This document shows positions 22,709-44,200 of a stretch of DNA of 64,000 bases, one piece after another. The notes beneath the pieces are model-generated. The model saw nothing but the letters and a program-made list of their open reading frames with translations. It was not told the origin of the DNA and did not search any database. The DNA comes from an uncultured Candidatus Binatia bacterium. Lineage in GTDB: Bacteria; Desulfobacterota; Binatia; UBA9968; JAJDTQ01. Location of the stretch: contig OZ244617.1 in assembly GCA_965218305.1 (NCBI GenBank), forward strand, positions 3,058,983 through 3,122,982. Reading direction: 5' to 3'. Numbering within the stretch: the stretch's first letter is position 1; every line of letters begins with the position of its first letter. The position numbers were made by a program, and so were the translations under genes.

Positions 22709-23341
22709 TTATCCGGGCCGGTAGTGGACCACCCGCAGCGGCTTCAAGTTCCCGGAGTTGCAAGGATTGAGCACCTGGGGACAATTCGACCCGGCCACCA
22801 GGACATCCATGTCGGCCCTGAAGTCGATGTAATCGCCCGCCTTGGATTTCGGTGGTTCGATGGAGAACGTCCCGTCAGCCTGGATGGGGCAATTCATGAA
22901 GACATTCATGTTGTAGGGTATGTCTTTCCATGCAAGCCCCCAGGGTTCGAGAGCGGCGACGAAGTTGTCCCGGCAATTGGCAGCGCCCGGAACCCCGTAG
23001 CGGAATTCGTTGGTGTAGCGGGAGCAGGCCCCCGCGAGCATGTCGTGGGTGCAGCAAGTATCCGCCACAATCGTCATGAGCTTGCCGGCTTTATCCGAGA
23101 GCAGGGTGTAGCCGACCGTCGGATAAATCTGCTTGTTGAGGTTCAGCGTGTTCTCCGGGGAGAGTCTTTCAGCCAAATCATGCAGATTGAAAGCCAGGAA
23201 ATCCATCACCTGCTGCCCCTCGATATCGACGATTCGGAACACCTCTCCTTCCCGGACTTCCCCGGCGTAATGCCCCGCTGGTTCGATGATTTTGTCCGCG
23301 ATGATTTCTCCGGAAATCTTGTCTGCATCGGTGCTCATCAT
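22709..23341 (-). CDS. DUF1989 (urea carboxylase-associated protein-like) family protein
   Basis: FRIVDIEGQQ...D and conserved Cys/His-containing blocks are typical of DUF1989. Start placed at MMSTD, which has a perfect AAGGAGG Shine-Dalgarno 8 nt upstream. Confidence 0.55.
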   Translation of the reverse strand: MMSTDADKISGEIIADKIIEPAGHYAGEVREGEVFRIVDIEGQQVMDFLAFNLHDLAERLSPENTLNLNKQIYPTVGYTLLSDKAGKLMTIVADTCCTHDMLAGACSRYTNEFRYGVPGAANCRDNFVAALEPWGLAWKDIPYNMNVFMNCPIQADGTFSIEPPKSKAGDYIDFRADMDVLVAGSNCPQVLNPCNSGNLKPLRVVHYRPG

Positions 23342-23385
23342 TAGCCCTCCTTGAATCAGGCGGTGATTGCGCCGCCGAAGATACG

Positions 23386-24234
23386 TCACGCCGAATACGG
23401 AGAAACAGGCGTGATGTTCCTGTAGTCCACCGGCAGCGGCTCGACGTGGATGCCGGCATCGATCTCGGCCATGCGTGCTTCGGTCAACGGATAGCCGAAG
23501 GTTTCGTTGCGGAGCCTCAGGTGCGCCGTGGCCTTCTCGGTGATGATATGCCGCGCGGTCTCGAGGTCGTCGTCGTTGCGGATGGCCTGGGCGATGTGGG
23601 GAATGTGGACGGGTCCGTGGCGCATCTCGTCGTGGAAGATGATGCCCATGGCTTCGGCGATGGCCTTTTCGACGGCGCCCCCGGAATAAGAGGTGTAAGG
23701 GAGTTCGAGCAGCCTGTTGCCCATGTAGAAGATGGCTGCTCCGGCGCCCTCGGAAAAGCCCAGGGCCACGTCGGCAAGGTCGCCGTAGGTTTCATCGAGC
23801 CGCCGGGTGACCTCCACCTCGGCGGTCATGGCCGGCAAGTCCGGGTGCCCCTTGCGTTCGTGCTGGCAGCCCGAGAGGGCCAGCAGCTCCCGCGGGTCCG
23901 GTCTCGTCCCCGCAATCTGCTCCATGATGTCCGCCAGGAGCCGGTAGTGCCGCGCCTCTTCGTAGACCGACCGCGTGGAGGCCTCGAAGGACCCGCGGCC
24001 GACCGCCGTCTCGATACGCGCGAGATCGCCGGGCAGGGCCTGGAGCAGCCGTTCCACCGTGCCGAGCTCCCGCGCCGCCTGCAGCTTGAGCCAGTGCAGG
24101 TCGTCCTCCCGGGTCCGAGGGTTGGAGAAGTAGGTGCGGACCACTTCCGCCTCCCCGGCCCACCAGCGCAACGGGGCGGCTTCGAGAGCCGCCGTGCGCT
24201 CATGGAGTTTCGCGTCCGGTTCCATCCCTGACAT
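23386..24234 (-). CDS. Uncharacterised protein, paralogue of 35129..35992; possible ferritin-like diiron fold (two E-x-x-H motifs)
   Basis: Clear paralogy with the second copy (RLRNETFGYPLTEARMAEIDAG vs RMRNEQFSYPIDEARIQEIAAG). Contains EEARH and DEMRH motifs. Start at MSGMEPD, with a GAGGAAG RBS upstream. Confidence 0.5.
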   Translation of the reverse strand: MSGMEPDAKLHERTAALEAAPLRWWAGEAEVVRTYFSNPRTREDDLHWLKLQAARELGTVERLLQALPGDLARIETAVGRGSFEASTRSVYEEARHYRLLADIMEQIAGTRPDPRELLALSGCQHERKGHPDLPAMTAEVEVTRRLDETYGDLADVALGFSEGAGAAIFYMGNRLLELPYTSYSGGAVEKAIAEAMGIIFHDEMRHGPVHIPHIAQAIRNDDDLETARHIITEKATAHLRLRNETFGYPLTEARMAEIDAGIHVEPLPVDYRNITPVSPYSA

Positions 24235-24419
24235 CGCTTCCTCGCTCGAAGGTCGCCGACGGCCTTTCGTTCTCGGACATTGATTGCGGCGGAGGTGATT
24301 GTATATAGACCTGTGCAAAAGGGTCAAGGACGTTCGGGGCAGGCGCCGCCACGACCGCTCCACACCCGGAGCATCGTGTCCAGTACCACCAAACCAACAC
24401 CGACGAGGGGGAACGCACC

Positions 24420-25631
24420 ATGCGGGCGAATACAGAGAGAAAGGTGAAACGCTGGCAGGAGCAACGCTGGATACTGGATCAGGTCATCAAGGTCAGCGGC
24501 CTCGACTTCGATCAGGGGCGCTCGGGCAAGATGCTGCGGAACTGCGGTCCGGCCATCGCCGGGGAGTTGCGGGGCTTCGGGCAGACGGTACAGAAGTTCA
24601 CGGACTTCCCGCGGGAGTTCTCCCACGCCGCCCAAACGCGGGAGCGGCGGGGGCGGGCCGCCGAGGAGTTGGGGCACACGGTGGAGGCGCGCGAGCACTA
24701 CTACGTGGCGGCCACCTACTACACCGCGGCCCAGTGGGGCATCTTCGAGGACGGCAACCCGCAGCGGATGGCCTGGGCGGAGAGCAAGCGGGACTGCTAC
24801 GACCGCTACATCCGGTTCGCCGATCATCCCATCGAACGGGTGGACCTGCCCATGCCGGGCGGGCAGATGATGGCGGCGCTGCTCCACCTGCCGCACAAGC
24901 CGGCGCCGGGGGAGCGGTTCCCGTGCATCCTCTACCAGCCGGGCATGGACGGGGTGAAGGAAGACAATCCGCTCATGGGCGATCCGCTGTTGCAACGAGG
25001 AATGGCGATCCTGTCCATCGACGGCCCGGGGCAAGGCGAGACCCGGGAACGGGGCATCACCGTCACCGCCTCCAACTGCGAGGACGGCGCCAAGGCAGCC
25101 TACGCCTATCTCAAGACCCGTCCCGAGATCGACAGCGACCGGATGGCGATCTACGGGTCCAGCATGGGCTCCTACTGGGGCACGCGCATGGCGGCCGCCG
25201 TACCCGGCTTCAAGGCCTGCGCGGTGGCGGGCGTGTGCATGGAACCCACCCATTACTCCATCTTCAACACCGCCGCGCCGAGCTTCAAGCTCAACTATAT
25301 GTACATGGCCGGCTACGACGACGAGGCGGAGTTCGATGAGTTCTGCAAGACCTTGACCCTCGAAGGGGTGGCGGCCAAGATCCAGTGTCCCATGGTGGCG
25401 GCGGGGGAGGACGACGAGCTCTGTCCCATCGAGTTCGTCTATCAGCTCATGGACGAGGCCACTTGTCCCAAGGTCCTCTACGTCTACGAAGGCGAGCGCC
25501 ACTCCATCCGTAACCCGGCGGCGCGCACCATCATCGTGGACTGGCTCAAGGACTGCCTCGACGGAAAGCCGGTCACGTCGGAGAAGGTTTACGTCGAGAT
25601 GAGCGGCAAGGAGACCCGGACGCGGTTCTGA
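24420..25631 (+). CDS. Alpha/beta hydrolase (dienelactone hydrolase / DHPON-hydrolase-like C-C or ester hydrolase)
   Basis: Nucleophile elbow IYGSSMGSYWG. 403 aa with an N-terminal cap domain. Confidence 0.6.
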   Translation: MRANTERKVKRWQEQRWILDQVIKVSGLDFDQGRSGKMLRNCGPAIAGELRGFGQTVQKFTDFPREFSHAAQTRERRGRAAEELGHTVEAREHYYVAATYYTAAQWGIFEDGNPQRMAWAESKRDCYDRYIRFADHPIERVDLPMPGGQMMAALLHLPHKPAPGERFPCILYQPGMDGVKEDNPLMGDPLLQRGMAILSIDGPGQGETRERGITVTASNCEDGAKAAYAYLKTRPEIDSDRMAIYGSSMGSYWGTRMAAAVPGFKACAVAGVCMEPTHYSIFNTAAPSFKLNYMYMAGYDDEAEFDEFCKTLTLEGVAAKIQCPMVAAGEDDELCPIEFVYQLMDEATCPKVLYVYEGERHSIRNPAARTIIVDWLKDCLDGKPVTSEKVYVEMSGKETRTRF

Positions 25632-25683
25632 CGTGTTCCGAGGCCGCCGCCACGGGAACGCGACGGGAGGATGCGGTCCGGAC

Positions 25684-26204: not shown

Positions 26205-27662
26205 ATGCAGATGTTCATTGCTGGCGAGTATACGGATACGGCAAGCGGCGAGACCGTCGCCATACACAACCCTGCCACCGGAGAGTTGGTGGACACCGTT
26301 CCAAAAGGCACGGCGGATGACGTGAAGCGGGCGGTTGCGGCCGCGGAAGAGGCGGCGGTGGAGTGGGGCAAGTTTTCTCCGCCCAAGCGTGGCGCCTGCC
26401 TGACCGAGGCCGCGCGCCTCGTGCTGGAGAACGAGAAAGAGCTGACCCAGTTGCTCACCAGGGAACAGGGCAAGGCGCTGCGCGAGTCGGTGCTGGAGAT
26501 CCGCCGCTTCGCCCACACCCTGGAGCACTATGCCGGCATGGCGAAGACGCTGCGGGGCGGCTACGTGAAGCTGGATGACGGGCGCTACGGGCTGATCATG
26601 AGCAAGCCCATGGGGGTGGTGGGCTCCATCGTGCCGTGGAACTTCCCCGTATCGTTGATGGGCAACAAGGTGGGTCCGGCGCTGCTCGCGGGCAACGCTA
26701 TGGTCATCAAGCCCGCCAGCACCACGCCGCTGACCGCCACCCGGTGCGTCGAGCTGGTGCAGCAGGCGGGGCTTCCCAAGGGCACCATCAACATGGTGAC
26801 CGGACCCGGCGGGGACGTGGGTGAGGAAATCCTCCGCCACCCGGCCATCCGGAAGGTGGGCTTCACCGGCGCCACCGACACCGGCAAGCGGATCATGGAG
26901 GTGGCTTCCCGGGAGGTCAAGCGGGTTACCCTGGAGCTCGGCGGCAGCGACCCCATGATCGTGTGCGACGATGCCAACATCGACCGGGCGGTGAGCGCGG
27001 CCTCCGTGGGCCGTTTCTTCAACTGCGGCCAGGCGTGCCTGGCGGTCAAGCGCCTCTACCTGTACGACGGCATCGCCGACGAATTCATCGAGAAGCTGGT
27101 GGAGAAGGTCCGCAAGCTGCGGGTAGGCAACGGCCTGACGCGGGGCACCATGCTCGGACCGCTGCACACCAAGGCGCAGCGCGAGGAGGTGGAGGAACAG
27201 GTGGCGGACGCGGTGCAGCGCGGCGCCAAGGTGCTGGTGGGCGGCGATCGCCCCACCGGCGACGAGTACGACAAGGGCAACTTTCTGAATCCGTCGGTCG
27301 TGGTGGATGTCGATCCCGCGTCCAAGCTGCTGGCGGACGAGGTGTTCGGACCGGCCCTGCCGGTGGTGCGGGTCAAGAACCTCGAGGAGGGCTTGGCGCT
27401 GGCCAACGATTCCATCTTCGGTCTGGGCTCCTCGATCTGGACCCAGGACATCGACAAGGCCATGTTCGCGGCCGAGAAGCTCGACGCCGGGTACACCTGG
27501 GTCAACTCCGCTCAGATCATCTACGACGAGCTCCCCTTCGGCGGCGTGAAGCAGAGCGGCGTCGGCAAGGAGCACGGCAACGAGGCCGTGGAGCACTACA
27601 GCGAGGTCAAGTCCGTGGTCGTGGCCACGGAGCAAACTTCCGAGATGGTGGGAGGCGAATAG
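26205..27662 (+). CDS. NAD(P)-dependent aldehyde dehydrogenase
   Basis: ALDH family, 485 aa. Catalytic Cys region FFNCGQACLA, Glu motif LELGGSDP, and Rossmann region GSIVPWNFP. Confidence 0.9.
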   Translation: MQMFIAGEYTDTASGETVAIHNPATGELVDTVPKGTADDVKRAVAAAEEAAVEWGKFSPPKRGACLTEAARLVLENEKELTQLLTREQGKALRESVLEIRRFAHTLEHYAGMAKTLRGGYVKLDDGRYGLIMSKPMGVVGSIVPWNFPVSLMGNKVGPALLAGNAMVIKPASTTPLTATRCVELVQQAGLPKGTINMVTGPGGDVGEEILRHPAIRKVGFTGATDTGKRIMEVASREVKRVTLELGGSDPMIVCDDANIDRAVSAASVGRFFNCGQACLAVKRLYLYDGIADEFIEKLVEKVRKLRVGNGLTRGTMLGPLHTKAQREEVEEQVADAVQRGAKVLVGGDRPTGDEYDKGNFLNPSVVVDVDPASKLLADEVFGPALPVVRVKNLEEGLALANDSIFGLGSSIWTQDIDKAMFAAEKLDAGYTWVNSAQIIYDELPFGGVKQSGVGKEHGNEAVEHYSEVKSVVVATEQTSEMVGGE

Positions 27663-27724: not shown

Positions 27725-29278
27725 ATGAGCGCTCCGCGACTCGAACTGCCGGACCCCTACAACGCGGCCACCACGTTCGTCGACGACAACGTCACCGCGG
27801 GCCGTGGCGAGCGCACCGCGATCCTGTACGAGGACCAGCGGTTCACCTACCGGCAGGTCCAGGAGGCGGTCAACCGGGCCGGCAACGCGTTCCGCGGCCT
27901 CGGCCTGGACACCGAGCAGCGCGTCCTGCTGGTGCTCCCCGACTGTCCCGAGTTCGCTTCCAGCTTCTTCGGCGCCATCAAGATCGGCGCCGTTCCCATT
28001 CCGGTGAATCCCTGGATGAAGGCCGGGGATTACGAGTATCTCCTCAACGACAGCCGGGCTCGCATCGTCGTGGTGCACGAGTCCGCGCTGCCGGAGATCG
28101 AGGCCATCCGCCAGCGGCCGCGCCACCTGCGGCACGTCGTGGTCGTGGAAACGTCGCGGGGTAGCGCCACGGGTTGGGACGCCCTGCTGGAGGGACAGTC
28201 CGCGGAGCTCGAAGCGGAACCCACCGGACGCGACGATGTCGTCATGTGGAACTACACCTCGGGCAGCACCGGCAACCCCAAGGGCGCGGTCCACCTCCAG
28301 CACGACATGATCACCATCACGGATCTGTTCGTGAAGCCCGTGCTCGGCATGACCGAAGACGACGTCTGCCTCTCCGCCTCCAAATTGTTCTTTTCCTACG
28401 GGCTGGGGAACTCCCTCTACTTCCCCTTCCGTTTCGGCGCCGCCGGCGTGCTGTGGCCCGAACGGCCGGATCCGGAGAAAATCCTCCAAACCATCGAGCG
28501 GTACCGGCCCACCTTCTTCTTCTCGGTGCCGACGCTCTACGCCCGCATGCTGCGGGTGGAAAAGGAATACGACCTCGGCTCCCTCAAGGTCTGCCTGTCC
28601 TCCGGAGAGCCGCTGCCGCCGGCCCTCTTCAATCAGTGGCGGGAGAAAGTCGGCGTGGAGTTGCTGGACGTCGTAGGCTCCACCGAGGCGACCCACGATT
28701 TTCTCGCCAACCGGCCGGGACGGGCCAAGGCGGGAAGCAGCGGCGAGGTGACGCCGGCCTTCGTGGCCAAGGTGGTGGACGACGAGGGGCGGGAGGTGCC
28801 CAACGGCGAGGTGGGCAACCTGTACGTCAGCGGCGACGCCACCGCGCCCTACTACTGGAACAAGCACGAGCAGACCCAGCGCACCATGCTCGGGGAGTGG
28901 CTCAAGACCGGCGACACGTACTACCGGGACGACGACGGCTATTTCTGGTACTGCGGCCGCTCCGACGACATGCTCAAGGTGGGCGGCCTGTGGGTCTCGC
29001 CCATCGAGGTGGAGAACGCGTTGATGGAGCATCCGGTGGTGCTCGAGGCGGCGGTGACCGGAGCGGCGGACGGCGACGGCCTCATCAAGCCCAAGGCCTA
29101 CGTCATCCTCAAGACCGAGCACCGCGGCGCCGATGGGCTGGCCCAGGAGCTGCAGGACTTCGTCAAGGGCAGCCTGGAACCGTACAAATACCCGCGCTGG
29201 GTGGAGTTCGTGGAAGATTTGCCGAAGACCGTGACCGGCAAGATACAGCGGTTCAAGCTCAGAGAAGGGAATGGATGA
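27725..29278 (+). CDS. Benzoate-CoA ligase family aryl-carboxylate--CoA ligase (AMP-binding)
   Basis: AMP-binding motifs YTSGSTGNPKG and YRTGD-like (WLKTGDTYYRDDDGYFWYCGRSDDMLKVGGLWVSP). Start at MSAPRLE; the longer ORF would overlap the ALDH gene. Confidence 0.8.
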   Translation: MSAPRLELPDPYNAATTFVDDNVTAGRGERTAILYEDQRFTYRQVQEAVNRAGNAFRGLGLDTEQRVLLVLPDCPEFASSFFGAIKIGAVPIPVNPWMKAGDYEYLLNDSRARIVVVHESALPEIEAIRQRPRHLRHVVVVETSRGSATGWDALLEGQSAELEAEPTGRDDVVMWNYTSGSTGNPKGAVHLQHDMITITDLFVKPVLGMTEDDVCLSASKLFFSYGLGNSLYFPFRFGAAGVLWPERPDPEKILQTIERYRPTFFFSVPTLYARMLRVEKEYDLGSLKVCLSSGEPLPPALFNQWREKVGVELLDVVGSTEATHDFLANRPGRAKAGSSGEVTPAFVAKVVDDEGREVPNGEVGNLYVSGDATAPYYWNKHEQTQRTMLGEWLKTGDTYYRDDDGYFWYCGRSDDMLKVGGLWVSPIEVENALMEHPVVLEAAVTGAADGDGLIKPKAYVILKTEHRGADGLAQELQDFVKGSLEPYKYPRWVEFVEDLPKTVTGKIQRFKLREGNG

Positions 29279-29308: not shown

Positions 29309-30010
29309 ATGGACGACTTGGTAGCGTTGAGAGACAAAGTGGCGATCTCGTGCAATATCCTGGCCATCGATGGGCACTGGGACAATATCCTGGGGCATGT
29401 ATCGGCCCGGGTGCCGGGCGAGAACGCCATGTTGATGAAGCCCCACAGCTACGGCTTCGAGGAGATCCGCCCGTACCACATCATCAAGGTGGACTTCGAC
29501 GGCAACAAGACAGAAGGCGACTACGAGCGCCACTCCGAGGTCTTCATCCACACGGAGATCTACAAGGCGCGCCCGGATGTGAACTGCGTCATCCACAGCC
29601 ATCCGCCCTACGCCACGGCTTTTGCCTCCCTGAGACAGCCGCTGCGGCCGGTGAGCCACGAGGGCTCCATCTTCCACGATGGGCTCCCCCTCTTCGACTA
29701 CACCACGATCCTGATCCGGACGCCCGAGCTGGGGGTGGAGCTGGCCAAGAAGCTGGCCCAGGCCCGCGCCGTGCTGATGAAGAACCACGGCTCCACCGTG
29801 GTGGCCGAATCGGTGGAGACCGCTACCCTGTACGCGATCTTTCTGGAGAAGGCGTGCCGCATACAGCTCCTTGCCGCCGCTGCCGGAGATCCCACCTGGA
29901 GCAGCGACGAGGAAGCGCGGGAGAAGTACGAGCAGATATATACGCCGCACCGGCTCGGCAGCATGTGGGACTATTTCGTGCGCCGCGCGAAACGGCTCGC
30001 CATCGACTGA
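29309..30010 (+). CDS. Class II aldolase/adducin-family protein
   Basis: HSHPPYATAF zinc-ligand region. 233 aa. Confidence 0.75.
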   Translation: MDDLVALRDKVAISCNILAIDGHWDNILGHVSARVPGENAMLMKPHSYGFEEIRPYHIIKVDFDGNKTEGDYERHSEVFIHTEIYKARPDVNCVIHSHPPYATAFASLRQPLRPVSHEGSIFHDGLPLFDYTTILIRTPELGVELAKKLAQARAVLMKNHGSTVVAESVETATLYAIFLEKACRIQLLAAAAGDPTWSSDEEAREKYEQIYTPHRLGSMWDYFVRRAKRLAID

Positions 30011-32054: not shown

Positions 32055-32212
32055 CATCCGCAATGCCCCTCCCCGTCATCCCGGGCTTGACCCGGGATCC
32101 AGGAGAGGGGAGGGGCCGTACCGGCAGACACGCCCCGCCACCACCCCTGGATCCCGAGTCAAGCCCGGGATGACGGGGAGGGGGGCCGGGATGTCGGGGA
32201 CTTGACCCGGAA
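32055..32212. repeat. Palindromic intergenic repeat element, copy C (complete variant with compensatory arm substitutions, plus an extra degenerate half-arm)
   Basis: Left arm GTCATCCCGGGCTTGACCCGGGATCCAGGAG (32067-32097). Right arm CCTGGATCCCGAGTCAAGCCCGGGATGAC (32138-32166). A third half-arm GTCGGGGACTTGACCCGGAATCACGG lies at ~32184-32210. The element sits between the coxM-like and coxS-like genes. Confidence 0.85.
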
Positions 32213-32721: not shown

Positions 32722-35132
32722 TGGCGACCTACGTCGGCAAGAGCATCAAACGGAAGGAATCCTTCGACTCCATCCAGGGGCGTAACACCTACGTCAGTGA
32801 TATCGACGTCCCCGGGATGCTCCACGCCTGCATCCACCGAAGCCCCTACGCCCACGCCCGCGTAACGCGGGTGGACCTGTCGGAGGCGCTGGCGCAGCCC
32901 GGCGTGGTGGCGGCCATGAGCGGCGAGGATGTCCGGCGGCTGTCCCGGCCCTTGGCGCCCTTTCCCTTCACCCGGACCAAGCCCTACACCAGCGACTACC
33001 CGCGGGTCCGGTTTGCCGACCACTATTGCCTGGCGGTGGACCGGGTGCGCCACGTGGGCGAGGCCGTGGCGGTGGTGGTGTCGGAAGACCGCTACGCGGC
33101 CGCGGACGCGGCTGAGGCGGTGCAGGTCGAATACGAACCCTTGCCGCCGGTGGTGGACGTGGAGGCGGCGCTGGAGCCGGAGGCCGTGCGGCTCTACGAG
33201 GAGTGGCCCGACAACATCCAGTATGAGTTCCGGTTCAGCGAAGGTCCGGTGGACGAGCTGCTGAACGAGGCTTCCGTAGTGATCCGGGAACGCATCGTGC
33301 AGCACCGCTACACCGGGACGCCGATGGAGACGCGGGGGGTCATCGCCAGCGTCGATCAACACGACAATCTGCTGACGCTGTGGAGCTCGACCCAGGTGCC
33401 CCATGCGCTTCCCAACCTGGTGCTGGACACCCTGGGGCGCACGGATCTCAAGATCCGCGTGATCTCGCCCACCATGGGCGGCGGCTTCGGCATCAAGTGG
33501 GCGTTCTACCCCGAAGAGGTGTTGATGCCGCTGCTGTCGCTCCAACTCAACCGGCCGGTAGCCTGGCGGGAGAGCCGTAGCGAGCACATGGTGGCCTCGC
33601 ACCACTCCCGGGCGCAGGTGGACTATGTCGAGGCGGGCTTCGACCGGTCCGGCCGCATCACCGCTCTCAAGACCAAGGTCATCGTGGACCTCGGGGCCGC
33701 CTATCCCAGCGGCGGCACCTCTCTGGCGTTCGTCACCGCGAACTTCATTCCCGGGCCCTACCGCGTCGACAACTACGCCACCTCCTCCTTCGGCGTGGTC
33801 ACCAACAAGACCGCCGCCGGCCCCCACCGGGCCAACGGCAAGGCCGAGTCCAATTTCATCATGGAGCGGGTGATGGACCGGGCCGCCCTGGAGCTGGGCC
33901 TCGGCAAGGACGAGATCCGGCAGCGGAACCTGATCCAGCCCCACGAGTTTCCCTACACGTGCGTCACCGGGTCCACCTATGACAGCGGCGACTACCCCGC
34001 GTGCCTGCGCAAGGCGCTGGAGGAGGTGGACTACGGCAGCCTGCTGGCGGACCGGGACCGCTGCCGCGGGGAGGGCCGCTACCGGGGCATCGGTCTGGCG
34101 TTCATACTGGAGCCCCTGAGCTCGCTCCGGCCCAACGCCTACAACGCGGGCTACGAAACCGTGACCGTGCGGGTGGACCCGGTGGGCAAGGCCTGGGTGT
34201 TCTCGGGCGACATGAACATGAGCATGAGCCACAAGACCACGCTGTCCCAGGTGGTGGCGGACGGGCTCGGCGTGCGCTTCGAGGACGTGCAGGTGTTCGA
34301 AGGCGACAGCGCCCTGGTGTCGTCGTCCAGCGGCTCCTACGCCAGCCGGTTCTCCACGGTGACGGTTTCGGCCGCCATCAAGGCCTGTCAGGCGGTGCGG
34401 AGGAAGATGCTGGCCATCGCCGCCCACGCGCTGCGAACCCATCCCGCCGCCCTCGAATGCGCCGGCGGCATGGTGTTGAGCCGGGAGAAGCCCGGGGTCG
34501 CGCTCACGGTCAAGGAAGTGGCCAACCTTGCCTACTACTCCATCAACCAGCTCCCTCCGGGCATGGACCCGGGCCTCCACGACACCCACTACTTCATCAA
34601 TCCCAACACCAGCTTCGAGCCCGACGCCAAGGGCCGGACCTCGAACTTCTCGACCTTTCCCTATGCCGTGCACGTGGCCTACGTGGAGGTCGACGTCACC
34701 ACCGGTGAGACAAAGATCCTGAAGTATCTCGGCGTGGACGACTGCGGCAACATGGTGAACCCGATGATCGTTCATACCCAGATCACCGGCGCCATCTCCC
34801 ACGGCGTCGGGGGCGCGTTTCTGGAAGAGCTGGTGTATGACGAGCAGGGACAGCTCCTGTCAGGCACCTTCGCCGACTATCTGATTCCGTCCATGGCGGA
34901 GATGCCGGACCTGGAGCTCCATCACATGGTGACGCCCATGCCTTTCACTCCCGGCGGGTTCAAGGGGGTGGGAGAGATCGGCGCCATCGGCCCGCCGGTG
35001 GTCCTGGCCAGCGCGATAGAGGATGCGCTGGCGCCGCTGGGGGTGAAGATCATGAGGCTGCCGCTCAAGCCGGAGAACATCTGGCGGGCGATACACGAAA
35101 ACGAAAACCAAGGAACAGGAGACGAGCGATGA
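32721..35132 (+). CDS. Molybdopterin-binding hydroxylase large subunit (CoxL/aldehyde oxidase/xanthine dehydrogenase family)
   Basis: 803 aa. Begins MATYVGKSIKRKE, overlapping the coxS-like stop (TGATG). Typical Ald_Xan_dh_C/C2 blocks (GGGFG, GVGE). Confidence 0.85.
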   Translation: MATYVGKSIKRKESFDSIQGRNTYVSDIDVPGMLHACIHRSPYAHARVTRVDLSEALAQPGVVAAMSGEDVRRLSRPLAPFPFTRTKPYTSDYPRVRFADHYCLAVDRVRHVGEAVAVVVSEDRYAAADAAEAVQVEYEPLPPVVDVEAALEPEAVRLYEEWPDNIQYEFRFSEGPVDELLNEASVVIRERIVQHRYTGTPMETRGVIASVDQHDNLLTLWSSTQVPHALPNLVLDTLGRTDLKIRVISPTMGGGFGIKWAFYPEEVLMPLLSLQLNRPVAWRESRSEHMVASHHSRAQVDYVEAGFDRSGRITALKTKVIVDLGAAYPSGGTSLAFVTANFIPGPYRVDNYATSSFGVVTNKTAAGPHRANGKAESNFIMERVMDRAALELGLGKDEIRQRNLIQPHEFPYTCVTGSTYDSGDYPACLRKALEEVDYGSLLADRDRCRGEGRYRGIGLAFILEPLSSLRPNAYNAGYETVTVRVDPVGKAWVFSGDMNMSMSHKTTLSQVVADGLGVRFEDVQVFEGDSALVSSSSGSYASRFSTVTVSAAIKACQAVRRKMLAIAAHALRTHPAALECAGGMVLSREKPGVALTVKEVANLAYYSINQLPPGMDPGLHDTHYFINPNTSFEPDAKGRTSNFSTFPYAVHVAYVEVDVTTGETKILKYLGVDDCGNMVNPMIVHTQITGAISHGVGGAFLEELVYDEQGQLLSGTFADYLIPSMAEMPDLELHHMVTPMPFTPGGFKGVGEIGAIGPPVVLASAIEDALAPLGVKIMRLPLKPENIWRAIHENENQGTGDER

Positions 35133-35992
35133 GCGAGGCAGGGAACGGTTTTACCGAAAGGGCGACCCGGGAGCTGGCGCGGGTGGCGGCGGTCTTTGCC
35201 GCGGGCGAGGCGGAGATCGCCGAGACCTACTTCAACTGGGACCAGCGGGACCGCGACAAGGAAGTCCTCTGGCTCACCAAGCAGGCCGGCCGGGAGATCG
35301 AGAGCACCTTCACGGGCCTCAAGGAGATCGTCGAGAAGGTGGGCGGCGACCTGGGCAAGTCGGACCAGTACTGGGTGGACCAGTGGGGCGGAGACGTGGA
35401 CCGGAACTGGCTCGAGGAGAACCTCTTCCGGACCAAGCAGGAGCTCAACCACGGCAATCGGTGCGTCGATATCATCGAATGGCTCACCGGCGAGCCCCTG
35501 GACATCAAGGAGGTGGTGCGCCGGTACAACCGCTGGAATCCCGACCCGGCGCTGCCCGACATGACGGAATGGGTGCGGCTGGCGGAGGTGTTCAAGGAAC
35601 AGGAGGCACGCCAGGAGTCCTGGGCTCGCCTCATCAACTCCCAGGGATTGCTCGAAGGCGGCAGTTGCGGCCTGTTCTACGCCGCCACCCGGTTGAGCGG
35701 CAGCGAGCTCAACGACCGGTTGGCCGAGGCCTTCACCGTGGTGCTCGACGACGAGCGCGGCCACGGGCCCGCCAACATCTACCGGATCGCCGATGCCTTC
35801 ACCACCCAGGAGGCCGTCAACGGCGCCCGGGGTCTGATGGTGGAGCGGGGCATACAGCGCCTGCGCATGCGCAACGAGCAGTTCAGCTACCCCATCGACG
35901 AGGCCCGCATCCAGGAGATCGCCGCGGGCAACATCGGTCTGGACGTGACCCGCGAGATCTGGGGCGAGACCCTGGCGCGGTTCATCGACTAG
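35129..35992 (+). CDS. Uncharacterised protein, paralogue of 23386..24234 (possible ferritin-like), translationally coupled to the Mo-hydroxylase large subunit
   Basis: ATGA overlap with the coxL-like stop and an AAGGAACAGGAG RBS. Shares blocks with the paralogue (DDERGHGP / DEMRHGP; RMRNEQFSYP / RLRNETFGYP). Confidence 0.55.
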   Translation: MSEAGNGFTERATRELARVAAVFAAGEAEIAETYFNWDQRDRDKEVLWLTKQAGREIESTFTGLKEIVEKVGGDLGKSDQYWVDQWGGDVDRNWLEENLFRTKQELNHGNRCVDIIEWLTGEPLDIKEVVRRYNRWNPDPALPDMTEWVRLAEVFKEQEARQESWARLINSQGLLEGGSCGLFYAATRLSGSELNDRLAEAFTVVLDDERGHGPANIYRIADAFTTQEAVNGARGLMVERGIQRLRMRNEQFSYPIDEARIQEIAAGNIGLDVTREIWGETLARFID

Positions 35993-36001
35993 GCTTTCGG
36001 G

Positions 36002-36799
36002 GTGAGGGAGACCGGCGTGACGTCCTACATTGAGCTCGAAGGCAGGGACGGCATCGCGTTCATCACGCTGAACCGGCCCGACAAGCTCAACGCCATGAAC
36101 GAGGAGATGTGGACGGAGCTGGGACGCGTGTGGGATGCGTTCGCGGCGGACGCGGCGTTGCGCGTGGCCGTGGTGAGCGGCGAGGGCGAGCGGGCGTTCT
36201 CCACGGGCATGGACCTGAAGGAGCGGGCGGTGGCGGGCGACCCGCGGGCGCGGGAGTTCTGGACCTCGGCCCTGGCCCGGGATCCGGGGCGCCGGGAGCC
36301 CGTGTGGAAGCCCATGATCGCCGCGGTGCACGGGTACTGCCTGGCCGGGGGCTTCGAGATCGCCCTTTCCTGCGACATCCGCATCTGCAGCGAGGACGCC
36401 ACCTTCGGCCTGCCGGAGATCAAGCGGGGGTTCTTCCCGGGCAGCTCGGGCACCGTGCGGCTGCCCCGCATCATGCCGTTGGGGATGGCCCTGGAGATGC
36501 TCTACACCGGCGCGTCCATCTCCGCGGCGGAAGCCTTCCGCTGCGGCCTGGTGAACCGAGTGGTGCCGCGGGACGAGTTGATGACCGAGGCCGAGAAGCT
36601 CGCCCGGGCCATCGCCGACGGGCCGCCGTTGGCACTGCAGGCGGTCAAGGAGGTGGTGCTGCGGGGCCTCGACCTCCCGCTGGCCGACGCCATCCGCTTC
36701 GAGGCCGGTTTCCGGGCCATGGTGGGCGGCACCGAGGACGCCGGCGAAGGCCCCCGTGCCTTCAGCGAGAAGCGGAAGCCGAGTTTCAAGGGCCGCTGA
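36002..36799 (+). CDS. Enoyl-CoA hydratase/isomerase (crotonase) family protein
   Basis: Crotonase-fold motifs VVSGEGERAFSTGMDL and AAVHGYCLAGGFEIALSCD. Confidence 0.85.
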   Translation: MRETGVTSYIELEGRDGIAFITLNRPDKLNAMNEEMWTELGRVWDAFAADAALRVAVVSGEGERAFSTGMDLKERAVAGDPRAREFWTSALARDPGRREPVWKPMIAAVHGYCLAGGFEIALSCDIRICSEDATFGLPEIKRGFFPGSSGTVRLPRIMPLGMALEMLYTGASISAAEAFRCGLVNRVVPRDELMTEAEKLARAIADGPPLALQAVKEVVLRGLDLPLADAIRFEAGFRAMVGGTEDAGEGPRAFSEKRKPSFKGR

Positions 36800-36880: not shown

Positions 36881-37090
36881 ATGAAGATCACATACTCTCG
36901 TGATGCGGATGTGCTCACCATTCAGTTGGGCGAGGGGCGGCCTTCCGACTCTACTGACATGGCTGAAGGGGTCATCGTGCACCTTTCCGAGGAAGGACGG
37001 CCTTTGGAAATCGAAATCCTCGACGCCTCCACGATCATAGACAACAAAAGGGTCGAGGTTTCTTTGGAGGCGCTGTTTCCCGCTGCCTGA
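36881..37090 (+). CDS. DUF2283 domain protein
   Basis: MKITYSRDADVLTIQL...EGVIVHLSEEGRPLEIEILDAS matches the DUF2283 pattern. The ATG has an AAGGGAGGTGG RBS. Confidence 0.6.
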   Translation: MKITYSRDADVLTIQLGEGRPSDSTDMAEGVIVHLSEEGRPLEIEILDASTIIDNKRVEVSLEALFPAA

Positions 37091-37172
37091 CCGGAGTCCT
37101 CGGTATGAGCGGTGGGAAGCAGGACTCTGTAGATCAATGAAGGGCTATTGAGCCGCTGAGAAAAGGTTGCGG

Positions 37173-38801
37173 ATGTACCAGGACCTCAGGGAATACCTCG
37201 AAATCTTGGACCGGCAGGGCCTCCTGCTGCGCGTGGCCGCCCCGGTGGACAAGGACACGGAGCTGCATCCGCTGGTGCGCTGGCAGTTCCTTGGGCTGCC
37301 GGACCACGAACGGAAGGCGTTTCTCTTCGAGAACGTGAGAGACGCCAAGGGCCGGCGTTACGAGACCCCGGTGGTGCTGGGAGCGCTCGCGTCCAACGAG
37401 GCCATCTACGCCCTGGGCATGGGCTGCGAGCCCGGCAAGAGCTTCGAGAAGTGGTCCGCCGCGGTGGCCAGCCCGTTGGCGCCGGAGATGGTGGCTAGCG
37501 GCCCGGTCAAGGAAGAGGTCCACGTCGGCGACGGTCTCCTGGAGCACGGCGGCCTCGACGAGTTCCCGGTGCCCATCTCGACGCCGGGGTTCGACAACGG
37601 GCCCTACTTCACCGCCTGCCACTGGATCACCAAGGACCCGGAGACCGGCATTCGCAACGTCGGCAACTACCGCGGCCAGATCAAGTCCCCCACCAAGACC
37701 GGCGTCTACCTCATCAGCGCCCAGCAGGATCTGGCCATCCACTGGAACAAGGCCAACGCCCTGGGCCAACCGCTGCCCGCGGCCGGCGTCATCGGGGCGG
37801 TGCCCTGCCTCTCCTACGTGGCGGTGCAGAAGATCGCCTACGGGGTGGACGAGCTGGGCGTGGCCGGCGCCATCCTGGGGCGGCCCATGGAGCTCGTCAA
37901 GTGCGAGACCGTGGACCTGGAGGTGCCGGCCAACGCGGAGATCGTCATCGAGGGGTACATCCGCACGGACCTGCTCGAGCCCGAGGGGCCCTTCGGAGAG
38001 TCCCACGGGTACATGGACCCTCGCAGCCTCAGCCCGGTGTTCGAGGTGACCTGCATCACCCACCGGAAGAACCCCCACTACGTGGGCGTGCTGAGCCAGG
38101 TGACGCCGAGCGAGAGCAGCAAGATCAAGCACCGCGGCTGGGAGTCGCTGGTGCTGGACCACCTGCGCAATCACTGCAGTCTGAAGAGCGTGGTCCGGGT
38201 GGGCATGCACGAGCCGCTGGTGAACCTGCGCCAGTTCGTGGTGGTGCAGATGCGCAAGAGCCACAAGCTCGAGCCCTGGCAGGCGATGATGGCGGTGCTG
38301 GGCTTCCGCTACGACCTTGGCAAGGTGGTGATCGCGGTGGACGACGACATCGACCCCGAGAACCTCGCGGCGATCAACTGGGCCATCTGCCACCGCTCGC
38401 AGCCGCACAAGGACGTGCGCATCATCAAAGGCCGCCAGACGGTCCACTCGCCCATCAACCTGGTGCGCATGCACGGCCACGCCGGCGACTACGACAGCGA
38501 GGACTCGTCGCTGCTCATCGACGCCACCAAGAAAGCCGAGTTCCCGCCGGTGTCGTTGCCTACCCGGGAGTACATGGAGCGGGCGCGGAAGCTCTGGGAC
38601 GAACTGGGAATGCCGGAGCTCAAGTACGGCAACCCGTGGCACGGCTATTCGCTGGGGTTGTGGCCGCCGGAGCTCGATGAGGAGGCGGCCCTGGCGGTCA
38701 AGGGCGAGCACCATTCCATCGGCGCCAAGCTGGACCAGCGCGCCGTGCCGGTGGCGCGGGGCGAGCCACTGCAGGACGTGCAGAAGCGATGGAAGCCGTA
38801 A
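37173..38801 (+). CDS. UbiD-family (prFMN-dependent) decarboxylase
   Basis: 542 aa. MYQDLREYLEILDRQG N-terminus and typical UbiD blocks (GPYFTACHWITKDPETGIRNVGNYRGQ, ESHGYMD). No ubiX found in the window. Confidence 0.85.
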   Translation: MYQDLREYLEILDRQGLLLRVAAPVDKDTELHPLVRWQFLGLPDHERKAFLFENVRDAKGRRYETPVVLGALASNEAIYALGMGCEPGKSFEKWSAAVASPLAPEMVASGPVKEEVHVGDGLLEHGGLDEFPVPISTPGFDNGPYFTACHWITKDPETGIRNVGNYRGQIKSPTKTGVYLISAQQDLAIHWNKANALGQPLPAAGVIGAVPCLSYVAVQKIAYGVDELGVAGAILGRPMELVKCETVDLEVPANAEIVIEGYIRTDLLEPEGPFGESHGYMDPRSLSPVFEVTCITHRKNPHYVGVLSQVTPSESSKIKHRGWESLVLDHLRNHCSLKSVVRVGMHEPLVNLRQFVVVQMRKSHKLEPWQAMMAVLGFRYDLGKVVIAVDDDIDPENLAAINWAICHRSQPHKDVRIIKGRQTVHSPINLVRMHGHAGDYDSEDSSLLIDATKKAEFPPVSLPTREYMERARKLWDELGMPELKYGNPWHGYSLGLWPPELDEEAALAVKGEHHSIGAKLDQRAVPVARGEPLQDVQKRWKP

Positions 38802-38816
38802 AAGGCACTCCACGCA

Positions 38817-39566
38817 ATGGAGCTTGACGGCACCCTGGTCCTGGTGGCCGCGGCCATCTTCTTCGCGGGCTTCGTCAAGGGCGCCATCGGCATGGGATTC
38901 CCGCTCATCGCCACCCCCATGCTGACCCTGCTGCTCGACATCCGCATGGCCATCGTCGTGCTGGTGCTCCCCAGCGTGGTGATGGACCTGAGCCAGATCT
39001 TTCGGCACGGTGTCCCCACCGCCACCTTCCGGCGCTTCTCGTCCATGTTCCTGTTCGCCCTGGTGGGCGTGTTCCTCGGCACGTGGGAACTGACCCAGCT
39101 CCCTCTGTGGGTGCTGAACCTCATCCTGGGAACCGTGGTCATTCTCTTCGCGGCGTCGGGACTGTTCTCGTTGACGCTCACCACGTCGCCACGGGCGGAG
39201 CCGCTGATGTCCCCGGTCATGGGATTCGCCGGCGGTTTCTTCCTGGGGTTGACCAACACCATGGGTCCGGTCATGGCGCTCTATCTCCACGGCCTCAGGC
39301 TCGACAAGGCCGGGTTCGTGAAGGCCATCTCCACCGCCTTCATCATGGCCAAGTTCTGGCAGATCGTCGCCATCTCCACCTGGGGGCTGTTCACCGCCGA
39401 GGCCATGAAGCTCTCGCTGTTCGTCACGGCGTTCATTCTCGTGAGCTTCTACCTGGGCCTGAAGGCGCAGGACCGGGTTCGCCAGCAGACGTTCAACCGC
39501 GCCATCCTCGTGCTGCTGATCTGCACCGGGCTGATGCTGGTCTACCGCGCCCTGAACGCGGCGTAG
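38817..39566 (+). CDS. TSUP-family (TauE/SafE) sulfite/anion exporter
   Basis: 249-aa polytopic protein with the two-repeat architecture GFVKGAIGMGFPLIATPML...GFAGGFFLGLTNTMGPV. Confidence 0.8.
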   Translation: MELDGTLVLVAAAIFFAGFVKGAIGMGFPLIATPMLTLLLDIRMAIVVLVLPSVVMDLSQIFRHGVPTATFRRFSSMFLFALVGVFLGTWELTQLPLWVLNLILGTVVILFAASGLFSLTLTTSPRAEPLMSPVMGFAGGFFLGLTNTMGPVMALYLHGLRLDKAGFVKAISTAFIMAKFWQIVAISTWGLFTAEAMKLSLFVTAFILVSFYLGLKAQDRVRQQTFNRAILVLLICTGLMLVYRALNAA

Positions 39567-39716
39567 CGCCCGACCCGTTCGCCGGTTTGCCGTTCTTTTC
39601 CCGCCGGCAAGGCGCCCGCCCGTGACATCTCTGCTCGCTATCTGCTATTGAGATTCCTCGAAGACTGGCGTCCCAATCGATCCGGAGCTGAACAGACTGC
39701 AACGGACACAGGACTC

Positions 39717-41162
39717 ATGCAGGCTTCCGACTACGACGTCATCGTCATCGGCAGTGGGCCCGCGGGCTATACCGCCGCCATTCAGGCGTGCGAGCTCGGC
39801 GCCAGGGTGGCGATCCTGGAGCGGCAGGAAGCCCTCGGCGGGATCACCCTCCTTTCGGGCACCATACCCAGCAAGACCTTGCGCGAGGCCATCCTCTACC
39901 TGCGGGGGGTGCGCCAGCGCCCGTTCTACGGCACCGACTTCACCGAAAGGAAAGACATCACCCTGTCCGATCTGTTCGTCCGGGTGCGGAAGGTGGTGGA
40001 ACGGCGGATCGCGACAATGGAGGACCATCTGCAGGTCTACCGCGACCGGAATCAGATCGACGTCTTTCGCGGCTATCACGCGACCGTGGACGGCCCCAAC
40101 TCCGTGCACGCGTGGGTGCTCAAGAATCCCATGGAATCCGTCACCCTGAAGGCGGAAAAGATCATCATCGCCGCGGGATCGAGGCCCCGCTTCCTACCGG
40201 ACATTCCGGTGGACAACGAGGTCATCTTCGATTCCGACTCCGTGTTCACCCTGGAGCTCAAGCGCGAGGCGTTGCCGGAATCGCTGATCGTCGTCGGCGC
40301 CGGGGTCATCGGCGCGGAGTACGGTTCGGCCTTCGCGGTTCTGGGTTGCAAGGTGTCGCTCATCCAGCGGGACCATACGTTCCTGACCTTCGCCGAGCGT
40401 CCTATCGTCGATATGCTCATCCGGCACATGGAGGACTACGGCGTGGAGTTCGTCTGGGGTACCTGGTACGACAAGATCGAGCGGATCTCCGGGTCGGAGG
40501 AAGACAAGGCGCGGGTCGTTCTCACCGACGGCCGGGTGCTGGAGGCCGACGCGGTGATCGTGGCCAGCGGCCGCGAGGTGGCTTCCAAGGTTCTCGGGCT
40601 GGAGGACGTGGGGGTGGAGGTCACCGAGCACGGCCTGCTCAAGGTCAACGAGCTGTTCCAGACCTCGGTGCCGAGCATCTATGCCGCCGGCGACGTCATC
40701 GGCTTCCCGGCGCTGGCCTCCACCAGCAGCGAGCAGGGCCGCATGGCCGCCAGCTACGCCCTGGGGCGCCGGGCCGGCGGGCGCAGGACGCTGTTCCCCA
40801 TGTGCGTCTACACCATCCCCGAGATCGCCATGGTCGGCTATACGCAGCAGGAGCTGGACGCCAAGGGCATCCCCTACGCCAAGGGCGTGGCCACCTACGA
40901 GGAGGTCACCAAGGCCGGCATCATCGGCGACCCCCACGGCATGCTGACGCTGTTGTTCGAACCCAACGGCTGGCACCTGCTGGGCGTGCACATCATCGGC
41001 GACCAGGCCTGCGAGCTGATCCACATCGGGCAGGCGGTGCTGAGCTACAACGGCACCATCGACTACTTCATCGACAACGTCTTCAATTTCCCCACCATGG
41101 GGGAGGCCTACAAAATCGCGGCCCTCAACGGGGTAAAGCAGCTTGGCGGGACCGGGTCGTGA
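39717..41162 (+). CDS. Pyridine nucleotide-disulfide oxidoreductase, soluble transhydrogenase (SthA)-like flavoprotein
   Basis: FAD motif YDVIVIGSGPAGY, then GGITLLSGTIPSK without the redox CxxxxC pair. NAD motif VVGAGVIGAEYGSAF. C-terminal dimerisation domain. Confidence 0.7.
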   Translation: MQASDYDVIVIGSGPAGYTAAIQACELGARVAILERQEALGGITLLSGTIPSKTLREAILYLRGVRQRPFYGTDFTERKDITLSDLFVRVRKVVERRIATMEDHLQVYRDRNQIDVFRGYHATVDGPNSVHAWVLKNPMESVTLKAEKIIIAAGSRPRFLPDIPVDNEVIFDSDSVFTLELKREALPESLIVVGAGVIGAEYGSAFAVLGCKVSLIQRDHTFLTFAERPIVDMLIRHMEDYGVEFVWGTWYDKIERISGSEEDKARVVLTDGRVLEADAVIVASGREVASKVLGLEDVGVEVTEHGLLKVNELFQTSVPSIYAAGDVIGFPALASTSSEQGRMAASYALGRRAGGRRTLFPMCVYTIPEIAMVGYTQQELDAKGIPYAKGVATYEEVTKAGIIGDPHGMLTLLFEPNGWHLLGVHIIGDQACELIHIGQAVLSYNGTIDYFIDNVFNFPTMGEAYKIAALNGVKQLGGTGS

Positions 41163-44197: not shown

Positions 44198-44200
44198 CCG

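Follow-up and report, generated by a model that had tools for sequence, protein, structure and literature searches.

The Hmf pathway for furfural and hydroxymethylfurfural (HMF), encoded by hmfABCDE and hmfFGH, was reportedly described by Koopman et al. in 2010. Box (benzoyl-CoA epoxidase) and Paa (phenylacetyl-CoA epoxidase) are aerobic hybrid pathways. Lumazine/pterin cluster I of Cupriavidus sp. LA-1 comprises a molybdenum (Mo) dehydrogenase, an Amidohydro_2 pair (DHLI), a UbiD, a UbiX, a GTP-binding helper and a pterin deaminase (PMC12391406), and the dipicolinate dip cluster is independent of the molybdenum cofactor (Moco) and based on monooxygenases (PMC11472048). Here we compare these systems and the phthalate pathways with a gene cluster of an uncultured soil bacterium of Candidatus Binatia, located on contig OZ244617.1 of assembly GCA_965218305.1 (positions 3,058,983–3,122,982, forward strand; this whole stretch of 64,000 nucleotides is hereafter the window). 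The cluster encodes an aldehyde dehydrogenase (ALDH), an aryl-CoA ligase, a three-subunit Mo hydroxylase, a UbiD-family decarboxylase dependent on prenylated flavin mononucleotide (prFMN) and two copies of an orphan di-iron-type protein. We tentatively read it as a conserved Binatia catabolic island for a carboxylated aromatic or heteroaromatic compound, built from two modules.

All five families of the Hmf pathway (UbiD, acyl-CoA ligase, three-subunit Mo hydroxylase, crotonase and an aldehyde-oxidizing enzyme) recur in the window. Measured against the authentic hmf operon of Paraburkholderia aromaticivorans pBN1 (locus L012; order LysR-hmfF-G-A-B-C-D-E-H-T), however, the identities are 32.5% for UbiD, 33.7% for CoxL, 27% for the ligase and 32.5% for the crotonase. 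The window CoxL scores 374 bits against HmfA, below its scores against 8uem (474 bits) and quinoline oxidoreductase (449 bits), and has about 800 residues rather than 1,009. Gene order also differs, an adjacent UbiX, GMC oxidase, LysR regulator and major facilitator superfamily (MFS) transporter are lacking, and the PhtD-like, aldolase-II-like and di-iron-like genes are extras; no GMC oxidoreductase was found among the annotated window genes. Orthology to hmf was rejected on the 27–34% identities, the length of HmfA and the lack of UbiX and GMC oxidase.

Lumazine cluster I shares with the window a non-canonical three-subunit Mo dehydrogenase and a divergent prFMN-dependent UbiD, there acting on an N-heterocyclic carboxylate, but is without the CoA-dependent branch found in the window. 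The DHLI Amidohydro_2 pair, GTP-binding helper, UbiX and pterin deaminase are all missing from 21.5–41.2 kb, and a lumazine cluster was rejected because these defining components are absent. The dip cluster, being Moco-independent and monooxygenase-based, is unrelated. With phthalate pathways the window shares a protein that resembles 4,5-dihydroxyphthalate decarboxylase over its full length (E = 2e-52) and a weak match to the PhtC model, but the latter scores under the model cutoff and UbiD is remote from phthaloyl-CoA decarboxylase (Pcd); no Rieske/phthalate dioxygenase, dihydrodiol dehydrogenase or benzoyl-CoA reductase was found among the annotated window genes. As in Box and Paa, one operon brings together a ligase of the benzoate-CoA-ligase family, a crotonase, an ALDH and a di-iron-type protein of helical fold, and in other lineages the orphan protein co-occurs with CoA-activating enzymes; ligase, crotonase and ALDH are conserved together in Binatia loci. 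No di-iron epoxidase of the BoxB or PaaA type with an accompanying reductase was found.

None of the pathways compared (hmf, lumazine, dip and phthalate) claims the cluster, and none of them supplied an orthologous cluster, the kind of match that an earlier note on this DNA, made from the sequence alone, had regarded as evidence against its own reading. That reading, a set of neighbouring genes for the catabolism of an aromatic or N-heterocyclic carboxylate, with a substrate that cannot be named from sequence, holds in both respects. The literature yielded nothing specific on a pyridine pathway combining UbiD with a Mo hydroxylase, nor on aromatic metabolism in Binatia. The cluster is a variant of known catabolic logic in an uncultured lineage and contains an unrecognised protein family.

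A gene cluster conserved across Candidatus Binatia

Genes were called from third-position GC bias (G+C content of the window, 62–68%) and annotated through Pfam, NCBIfam and PDB sequence searches. The genes on which the argument turns are as follows.

23386..24234, minus strand: orphan di-iron-like paralogue 2 ('unk325'); no Pfam or PDB sequence match
26205..27662, plus strand: NAD(P)-dependent ALDH; Pfam Aldedh, E = 2e-163
27725..29278, plus strand: benzoate/anthranilate-CoA-ligase-family aryl-CoA ligase; TIGR02262, 597 bits (cutoff 375)
29309..30010, plus strand: class II aldolase/adducin-family metalloenzyme; Pfam Aldolase_II
30084..31082, plus strand: 4,5-dihydroxyphthalate-decarboxylase-like (PhtD-like) enzyme with a periplasmic-binding-protein/NMT1 fold; PDB 9jp7, E = 2e-52
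31098..31985, plus strand: CoxM-type Mo-hydroxylase FAD subunit; Pfam FAD_binding_5 and CO_deh_flav_C
32251..32721, plus strand: CoxS-type Mo-hydroxylase [2Fe-2S] subunit; Pfam Fer2_2 and Fer2
32721..35132, plus strand: CoxL-type molybdopterin subunit, 803 amino acids; Pfam Ald_Xan_dh_C, MoCoBD_1 and MoCoBD_2
35129..35992, plus strand: orphan heme-oxygenase-like/ferritin-like di-iron-type paralogue 1 ('unk287')
36002..36799, plus strand: crotonase-family enoyl-CoA hydratase; Pfam ECH_1, E = 9e-63
37167..38801, plus strand: UbiD-family (prFMN) decarboxylase of a clade of about 551 amino acids; Pfam UbiD, UbiD_C and UbiD_N
38817..39566, plus strand: TauE/SafE-family anion permease; Pfam TauE, E = 1e-25
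39648..41162, plus strand: SthA soluble pyridine-nucleotide (Si-specific) transhydrogenase; NCBIfam NF003585, 508 bits (cutoff 465)
41250..46563, plus strand: Liv-type ABC transporter (binding protein, two ATPases and two permeases); Pfam

The searches recovered the families that the earlier note had listed, namely DUF1989, ALDH, benzoate-CoA-ligase-family enzyme, class II aldolase, crotonase and UbiD (Pfam, NCBIfam and PDB), together with the 4,5-dihydroxyphthalate-decarboxylase-like protein and the three subunits CoxM, CoxS and CoxL of the Mo hydroxylase. Of the two alpha/beta hydrolases that it had placed in the neighbourhood, one (24420–25631) lies inside the range and the second (21542–22687) just outside. 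Absent from that account were the two orphan paralogues (35129–35992 and 23386–24234), the TauE permease, SthA and a DUF2283 mini-gene.

Scanning species-representative genomes with an alignment of the UbiD clade identified eight species-level Candidatus Binatia metagenome-assembled genomes (MAGs), several of them complete chromosomes (OZ244869.1, OZ253480.1 and OX638375.1 are complete Binatia chromosomes), in which UbiD is 92–96% identical; one of the eight bears the label Syntrophobacterales. The whole cluster is kept, with its gene order, in seven of these eight species and on two metagenome contigs (L009 and L010), at 79–98% amino acid identity. The ALDH, which scores under all NCBIfam equivalog cutoffs, is 92–95% conserved across the Binatia loci. 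TauE adjoins UbiD in all close relatives (L009, L010 and L013–L020), and the Liv-type ABC genes are syntenic with UbiD-TauE-SthA in all eight Binatia genomes. The gene grouping is beyond chance, and subsets of it also co-occur in unrelated lineages. SthA is probably a housekeeping enzyme at the right edge of the range that the earlier note had described, and the Liv-type transporter is a possible uptake system.

Single Binatia chromosomes carry at least three UbiD-clade paralogues in varied contexts (L014, L047 and L091 on OZ253480.1; L018, L048 and L087 on OX638375.1), often near genes for M20 peptidases or PhtD-like, aldolase-II-like or orphan-family proteins. The multiple paralogues suggest an expanded toolkit for related substrates.

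Two modules traced through other lineages

The gene contexts of distant homologues divide the cluster into module A (Mo hydroxylase, PhtD-like enzyme and UbiD) and module B (aryl-CoA ligase, di-iron-type protein and crotonase). Module A is linked in a MAG labelled Deltaproteobacteria (L001), where UbiD (76% identity), CoxL (71%), CoxS (79%) and TauE (50%) occur in a different gene order, in an acidobacterial locus (L097; CoxL 49% with UbiD at 40%), and in L098, where CoxM, CoxS and CoxL (44, 59 and 47%) lie next to a PhtD-like gene (42%). Links within module B join the di-iron family (45%) to the ligase (55%) in L096 and the di-iron family (54%) to a crotonase (66%) and an ADP-forming acyl-CoA synthetase in L094; in L093, a member of the di-iron family (55%) is directly followed by a class III CoA-transferase. 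Elsewhere, the conserved partner of the ligase is the orphan di-iron-like protein and not UbiD (L096).

The N-terminal, Rift-related and C-terminal domains of the window UbiD (PF20695, PF01977 and PF20696) all score over cutoff. Its best PDB match, 6h6x/6h6v (189 bits, E = 1e-54), is a Pelotomaculum thermopropionicum protein listed beside C. basilensis HmfF (PMC12391406). The phthaloyl-CoA decarboxylase structures 8oz5 and 8pmk reach 61 bits (E = 7e-16) and come last among the 40 PDB matches at E ≤ 1e-10. We take the 6h6x/6h6v protein to be the furandicarboxylic acid (FDCA) decarboxylase HmfF, and the catalytic motif of the window UbiD also aligns to HmfF. Across an 18-member clade alignment (A1), N164, R169, E229 and E273-GPFG-E278 are invariant and H192 is nearly so; the corresponding metal, prFMN and catalytic residues of Fdc1 are presumably N168, R173, H191, E233, E277 and E282.

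This clade of about 551 residues is large and unnamed. All 8,000 candidates that were scored lay at E ≤ 1e-20, the best 120 listed being full-length, and 571 relatives were confirmed among species-representative genomes. Nearly all belong to MAGs (Binatia, Chloroflexota, Acidobacteriota, Thermodesulfobacteriota and others), and copies with 43–48% identity are found on Sinorhizobium, Neorhizobium and Paraburkholderia megaplasmids; two plasmid loci (H1 and H2) were without annotation, and H10 is a pseudogene in three pieces. De novo clustering of the genes around 72 distant clade loci (L021–L092) showed CoxL (25 loci), CoxS (19) and CoxM (17) directly downstream of UbiD on the same strand. This adjacency to a Mo hydroxylase, about 35%, is a lower bound given that many contigs are short. 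A homologue of the window ligase, by comparison, lies within 10 kb of UbiD at only one of the 72 loci (L056), so the conserved partner of this UbiD is the Mo hydroxylase and not the CoA ligase. The notion that the clade always stands beside a Mo hydroxylase, suggested by six loci, was ruled out by the same survey. Other neighbours include Amidohydro_2 proteins (16/72), short-chain dehydrogenases/reductases (SDR; 12/72), NMT1-type proteins (9/72) and dihydrodipicolinate-synthase-type proteins (DHDPS; 8/72).

The window lacks ubiX, as the earlier note had stated (tblastn over the 64 kb with two authentic UbiX queries, best E about 1), and prFMN would be supplied in trans; elsewhere, UbiX adjoins seven members of the clade (L005–L007, L056, L059, L075 and L083).

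Several clade loci have layouts of their own. A divergent cysS gene (cysteinyl-tRNA synthetase) lies upstream of UbiD in 18 of the 72 loci, with coxS-coxL-coxM following UbiD (for example, L003 5254–8432 and L039 8234–11608); the operon thus has a fixed chromosomal position in one sub-clade. On the Neorhizobium petrolearium plasmid (L005, 6290–21109) and Sinorhizobium meliloti pA (L007), UbiD is 43–44% identical to that of the window and stands between two Mo-hydroxylase large subunits, accompanied by CoxG, GntR, UbiX, TctC, a thiamine-pyrophosphate (TPP) enzyme and an NMT1-type protein annotated as an ABC substrate-binding protein. This rhizobial megaplasmid locus sits in cultured organisms, which makes it genetically testable. 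In L098 and L099 (5049–12810), two tandem Amidohydro_2 genes stand before CoxMSL genes of the window subfamily (CoxL 47%), and an ornithine-cyclodeaminase/mu-crystallin gene comes after them; this combination of a Mo dehydrogenase with an Amidohydro_2 pair resembles LuDH and DHLI of the lumazine pathway.

The Mo hydroxylase has the complete Pfam domain set of the separate FAD, 2×[2Fe-2S] and molybdopterin subunits of a xanthine-oxidase-family hydroxylase, and the ATG of coxL overlaps the stop codon of coxS. CoxL scores highest against the CO-dehydrogenase-type CoxL 8uem (474 bits), followed by quinoline 2-oxidoreductase (449 bits) and ketone dehydrogenase (416 bits). CO dehydrogenases carry the CoxL active-site motif AYxCSFR (form I) or AYRGAGR (form II); the window CoxL contains neither of these, nor any AY(x2-5)R motif along the protein, and retains the C-terminal GVGE with the catalytic glutamate. 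An aerobic CO dehydrogenase was rejected on the absence of the active-site motif and on scores under the cutoffs of TIGR02416 and NF040766.

The PhtD-like protein aligns with 9jp7 over residues 3–319 of 332, has no signal peptide (and is accordingly cytoplasmic), and has the CoxMSL set as its conserved partner (L098). The aldolase-family protein reaches 114 bits against the model for PhtC (3,4-dihydroxyphthalate decarboxylase; cutoff 200), and in the PDB it is closest to pyruvic oxime dioxygenase (8IX6/8IQA/8IL8), then to NovR and the pyridine-dicarboxylate decarboxylase Mlr6791 (2z7b). Pyruvic oxime dioxygenase is an Fe(II) enzyme (PMC11841055). By these resemblances the protein may be a decarboxylase or a non-heme Fe(II) oxygenase.

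In module B, the ligase is closest to anthranilate-CoA ligase 4wv3 (481 bits) and benzoate-CoA ligase 2v7b (435 bits), is 47% identical to benzoate-CoA-ligase-family proteins of Thermus, and has a sole in-frame start, the ATG at 27725. The orphan proteins unk287 and unk325 are paralogues (about 31% identity) that match no Pfam family or PDB sequence at standard thresholds. The start of unk287 overlaps the coxL stop by 4 nt, suggesting translational coupling. A search of 5.8 billion proteins yielded only 47 relatives, and a profile search returned 320 cluster representatives among 1.84 billion, none with a Pfam domain. An alignment of 25 family members revealed invariant E27, E56, E105xxH108, E176 and D208-E209xxH212 (an E/ExxH/E/ExxH pattern), and unk325 aligns at every invariant E/H position (alignment A2). 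Weak Pfam matches of individual members were to ribonucleotide-reductase R2 and DUF455 alone, both of them di-iron families. AlphaFold2 predicted a confident all-helical structure (pLDDT 89, pTM 0.88), with fold matches to heme-oxygenase-like di-iron and ferritin-like proteins. Judging by motif and model, the orphan protein is possibly a hidden oxygenase. A reading of the cluster as free of oxygenases was dropped given this di-iron-type motif and fold and the kinship of the aldolase-family protein to Fe(II) oxygenases and decarboxylases.

The orphan protein has no detectable sequence similarity to the heme-oxygenase-like di-iron proteins UndA, BesC, CADD, AetD, HrmI and SznF. It has two invariant histidines, a ferritin-like complement of two histidines and four carboxylates, as opposed to the three histidines and three carboxylates of UndA-type enzymes, and its context is CoA-thioester catabolism rather than natural-product biosynthesis. 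The family is previously unrecognised, rare and tied to CoA-thioester metabolism.

A tentative route and competing readings

Under the reading that we tentatively favour, a carboxylated (hetero)aromatic acid would be imported, possibly with TauE or the Liv-type ABC system as its carrier. The CoxMSL-type Mo hydroxylase of module A would add a water-derived hydroxyl to the ring of the free acid. Ring carboxyls would be removed non-oxidatively by UbiD and the PhtD-like enzyme, and perhaps by the aldolase-family enzyme as well; the prFMN that UbiD needs would be made by a UbiX whose gene lies at another place in the genome. If the order resembles that of HmfF and HmfABC, decarboxylation might come before hydroxylation and free the position on which the Mo enzyme acts. 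In module B, the ligase would thioesterify the remaining carboxylate, the orphan protein might then oxidize the aryl-CoA with O2 in the aerobic hybrid style of Box and Paa, and the crotonase, ALDH and hydrolases (FrsA-like, DUF1989 and PhaC-like) would process the opened ring. We infer all of these reactions and their order, the kind of substrate and, for the orphan protein, both its metal content and its dependence on O2 from what was observed directly: the family assignments, the conservation of the cluster, the co-occurrence of gene pairs across lineages and the absence of ubiX from the window.

Several observations weigh against this reading. In one Binatia genome (L016, OY762897.2), UbiD-TauE-SthA-Liv occurs without the upstream operon within 10 kb and is flanked by unrelated genes (carboxyltransferase and dipeptidase), and relatives carry insertions of 1.9–5 kb at two hot spots, the unk287–crotonase and crotonase–UbiD junctions; the cluster therefore consists of two halves that are separable as transcription units. 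L011, L097 and L098 have a CoxL of the window subfamily but no ligase, and the modules may therefore serve different substrates. No ALDH homologue was found in L093–L096, the ALDH being placed in module B by adjacency alone. The best PDB matches of the crotonase are short-chain enoyl-CoA hydratases, giving it the look of an ordinary hydratase and not of a ring hydrolase. The cluster holds neither a reductase partner for a di-iron oxygenase nor a regulator, a scan for promoters and terminators gave counts equal to the shuffled background and was uninformative, and all close relatives are uncultured MAGs. The cluster is real and conserved, yet comprises at least two separable units.

That separability is what a reading without any single pathway builds on, in which the ALDH-to-crotonase operon and the UbiD-TauE-SthA-Liv block are independent and merely adjacent in most Binatia. 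The L016 layout, the defence, toxin and DUF2283 insertions at the junctions (L009, L013, L014 and the window), the housekeeping character of SthA and the 368-bp gap between crotonase and UbiD are all in its favour. We nevertheless regard it as doubtful, given that UbiD and the same CoxL subfamily occur together in other gene orders in L001 (76% and 71%) and in the acidobacterial L097, that CoxS, CoxL and CoxM directly follow UbiD in at least 35% of clade loci, and that seven of eight Binatia species keep both blocks together. A single pathway could instead follow Hmf/Trudgill-type logic on another heteroaromatic compound: UbiD would act on an alpha,alpha'-dicarboxylate, the ligase would form the heteroaryl-CoA, the Mo enzyme would act on the thioester as furoyl-CoA dehydrogenase does and the crotonase would open or hydrolyse the ring, no oxygenase being needed and the orphan protein being accessory. 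Each of five families has its counterpart among hmfF, hmfD, hmfABC, hmfE and the furfural ALDH (operon L012), HmfF is the closest solved relative of UbiD, and the ligase, Mo-hydroxylase and crotonase genes lie on one strand with short gaps. This route appears unlikely in view of non-orthologous counterparts (27–34% identity; CoxL at 374 bits to HmfA against 474 and 449 bits, and about 800 against 1,009 residues), the missing adjacent UbiX and GMC oxidase, the occurrence of the same CoxL subfamily without a ligase in L011, L097 and L098, and the pairing of ligase and crotonase elsewhere with the orphan di-iron-like protein.

Two further routes are borrowed from described pathways. The earlier note had seen in the aryl-CoA ligase and UbiD the logic of anaerobic (iso)phthalate degradation, in which the ligase would make an aryl-dicarboxyl-CoA and UbiD would decarboxylate that thioester. 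Both enzymes do share one neighbourhood, and the PhtD-like and PhtC-like (class II aldolase-family) proteins suggest phthalate chemistry; this part of the note does not stand, however, as UbiD scores 61 bits against Pcd and 189 against HmfF, and a ligase homologue lies near UbiD in only 1 of 72 clade loci. With nine genes between ligase and UbiD, a ligase that partners another family elsewhere, a PhtC model match under cutoff, and no phthalate dioxygenase, phthalate dehydrogenase or benzoyl-CoA reductase among the annotated window genes, we consider this route very improbable. Degradation of pterins by a LuDH Mo dehydrogenase, a DHLI isomerase and an XCDC UbiD decarboxylase likewise combines a three-subunit Mo dehydrogenase with a UbiD that is divergent (PMC12391406), but is improbable in the extreme for a cluster that lacks the Amidohydro_2 pair, GTP-binding helper, UbiX and pterin deaminase and has a CoA ligase, crotonase and ALDH without a role in that pathway.

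The favoured reading of a two-module island admits a bolder, speculative and rather unlikely extension, in which the UbiD of about 551 residues and the Mo hydroxylase form a widespread, unrecognised 'decarboxylate, then hydroxylate' module and, in addition, the orphan family is a new class of heme-oxygenase-like di-iron oxygenase acting on aryl-CoA thioesters. If so, the module would serve uncultured phyla of soil and sediment (Binatia, Chloroflexota, Acidobacteriota and Thermodesulfobacteriota), as well as rhizobial megaplasmids, against carboxyl-blocked N- or O-heteroaromatics such as pyridine-, pyrrole- or furan-dicarboxylates, and the pathway would join Box and Paa as a third kind of aerobic hybrid route for aromatics. 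Binatia are abundant, uncultured inhabitants of soil and sediment with largely guessed carbon sources, and the cluster offers a concrete, testable catabolic capability. It also brings up two uncharacterised enzyme groups, the UbiD clade with its recurrent Mo-hydroxylase partner and the orphan di-iron-type family. Both prFMN decarboxylases and heme-oxygenase-like di-iron enzymes are of current interest for biocatalysis (including reversible carboxylation and C–H or C–C oxidation), where new substrate classes would be useful. Should the substrate be a heteroaromatic polycarboxylate of natural origin, the pathway would also close a gap in the turnover of carbon and nitrogen in soil.

Flanking genes and repeat elements

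Four further genes lie at the left edge of the cluster or between its parts.

21542..22687, minus strand: PhaC-like alpha/beta hydrolase; weak NCBIfam matches to PhaC, lactonase and PcaD-type proteins
22709..23389, minus strand: DUF1989 protein (urea-carboxylase-associated/carboxyguanidine-deiminase family); Pfam PF09347, E = 2e-58
24420..25631, plus strand: FrsA-like/S9-type alpha/beta hydrolase; Pfam FrsA-like, Peptidase_S9 and Hydrolase_4
36881..37090, plus strand: DUF2283 mini-gene between crotonase and UbiD; Pfam DUF2283, E = 5e-14

The PhaC-like hydrolase gene begins 22 bp downstream of the DUF1989 gene and is the last of a minus-strand trio, and its membership in the cluster is uncertain. 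The DUF1989 protein, a putative C–N hydrolase, reaches 193 bits against TIGR03424, under the model cutoff, and its gene overlaps that of the upstream orphan paralogue unk325 by 4 nt. The longest open reading frame (ORF) of unk325 extends to 24363; the L009 orthologue was called at 282 amino acids, and the start is probably Met44, at 24234. The FrsA-like hydrolase has an orthologue in L009 at 93% identity. A small ORF of 102 amino acids (25684–25992, minus strand) lies in the 574-bp gap between this hydrolase and the ALDH and has heptad-like DNA repeats; it gave weak coiled-coil Pfam matches, L009 has a 115-residue ORF at the same position, and it may not be a real gene.

The DUF2283 mini-gene, which has a lower G+C content at third codon positions than the flanking genes, is probably outside the pathway; it constitutes the junction insert of the window (36881–37090). 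The junction inserts of relatives include AAA_21/SLFN-type defence-like genes and a HigB toxin (L009, 13890–20160) and stretches of 1.9–2.8 kb (L013, 6669–8590; L014, 5769–8590).

Downstream of the cluster, 46748–62138 encodes a second Liv-type ABC transporter, a polar-amino-acid-type ABC transporter, an Amidohydro_1 enzyme, a luciferase-like monooxygenase, an NMT1_3 protein and an M20 peptidase. These genes may extend the catabolic island towards the metabolism of nitrogen compounds; conservation was examined up to 47917. On the other side, a low-GC island (52% against about 65%; window positions about 9600–12700) next to groES/groEL encodes an N6-adenine methyltransferase with an HSDR_N domain (10540–12420, minus strand), resembling Eco57I/MmeI-type restriction–modification proteins, and is probably horizontally acquired defence DNA. 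A DUF433/HTH gene lies at 5943–6716, within a further stretch (5546–6716) noted together with the island.

The coxM–coxS gap is filled by a GC-rich palindromic element of about 105 bp (32071–32178), of which a second copy lies near pilin genes (19046–19150). Its arms consist of CCCCGTCATCCCGGGCTTGACCCGGGATCC and the reverse complement of this sequence, with four arm matches against zero expected, and it looks like a REP/MITE-like repeat. In L010 the same gap is 74 bp long, and in L009 it reaches 368 bp.

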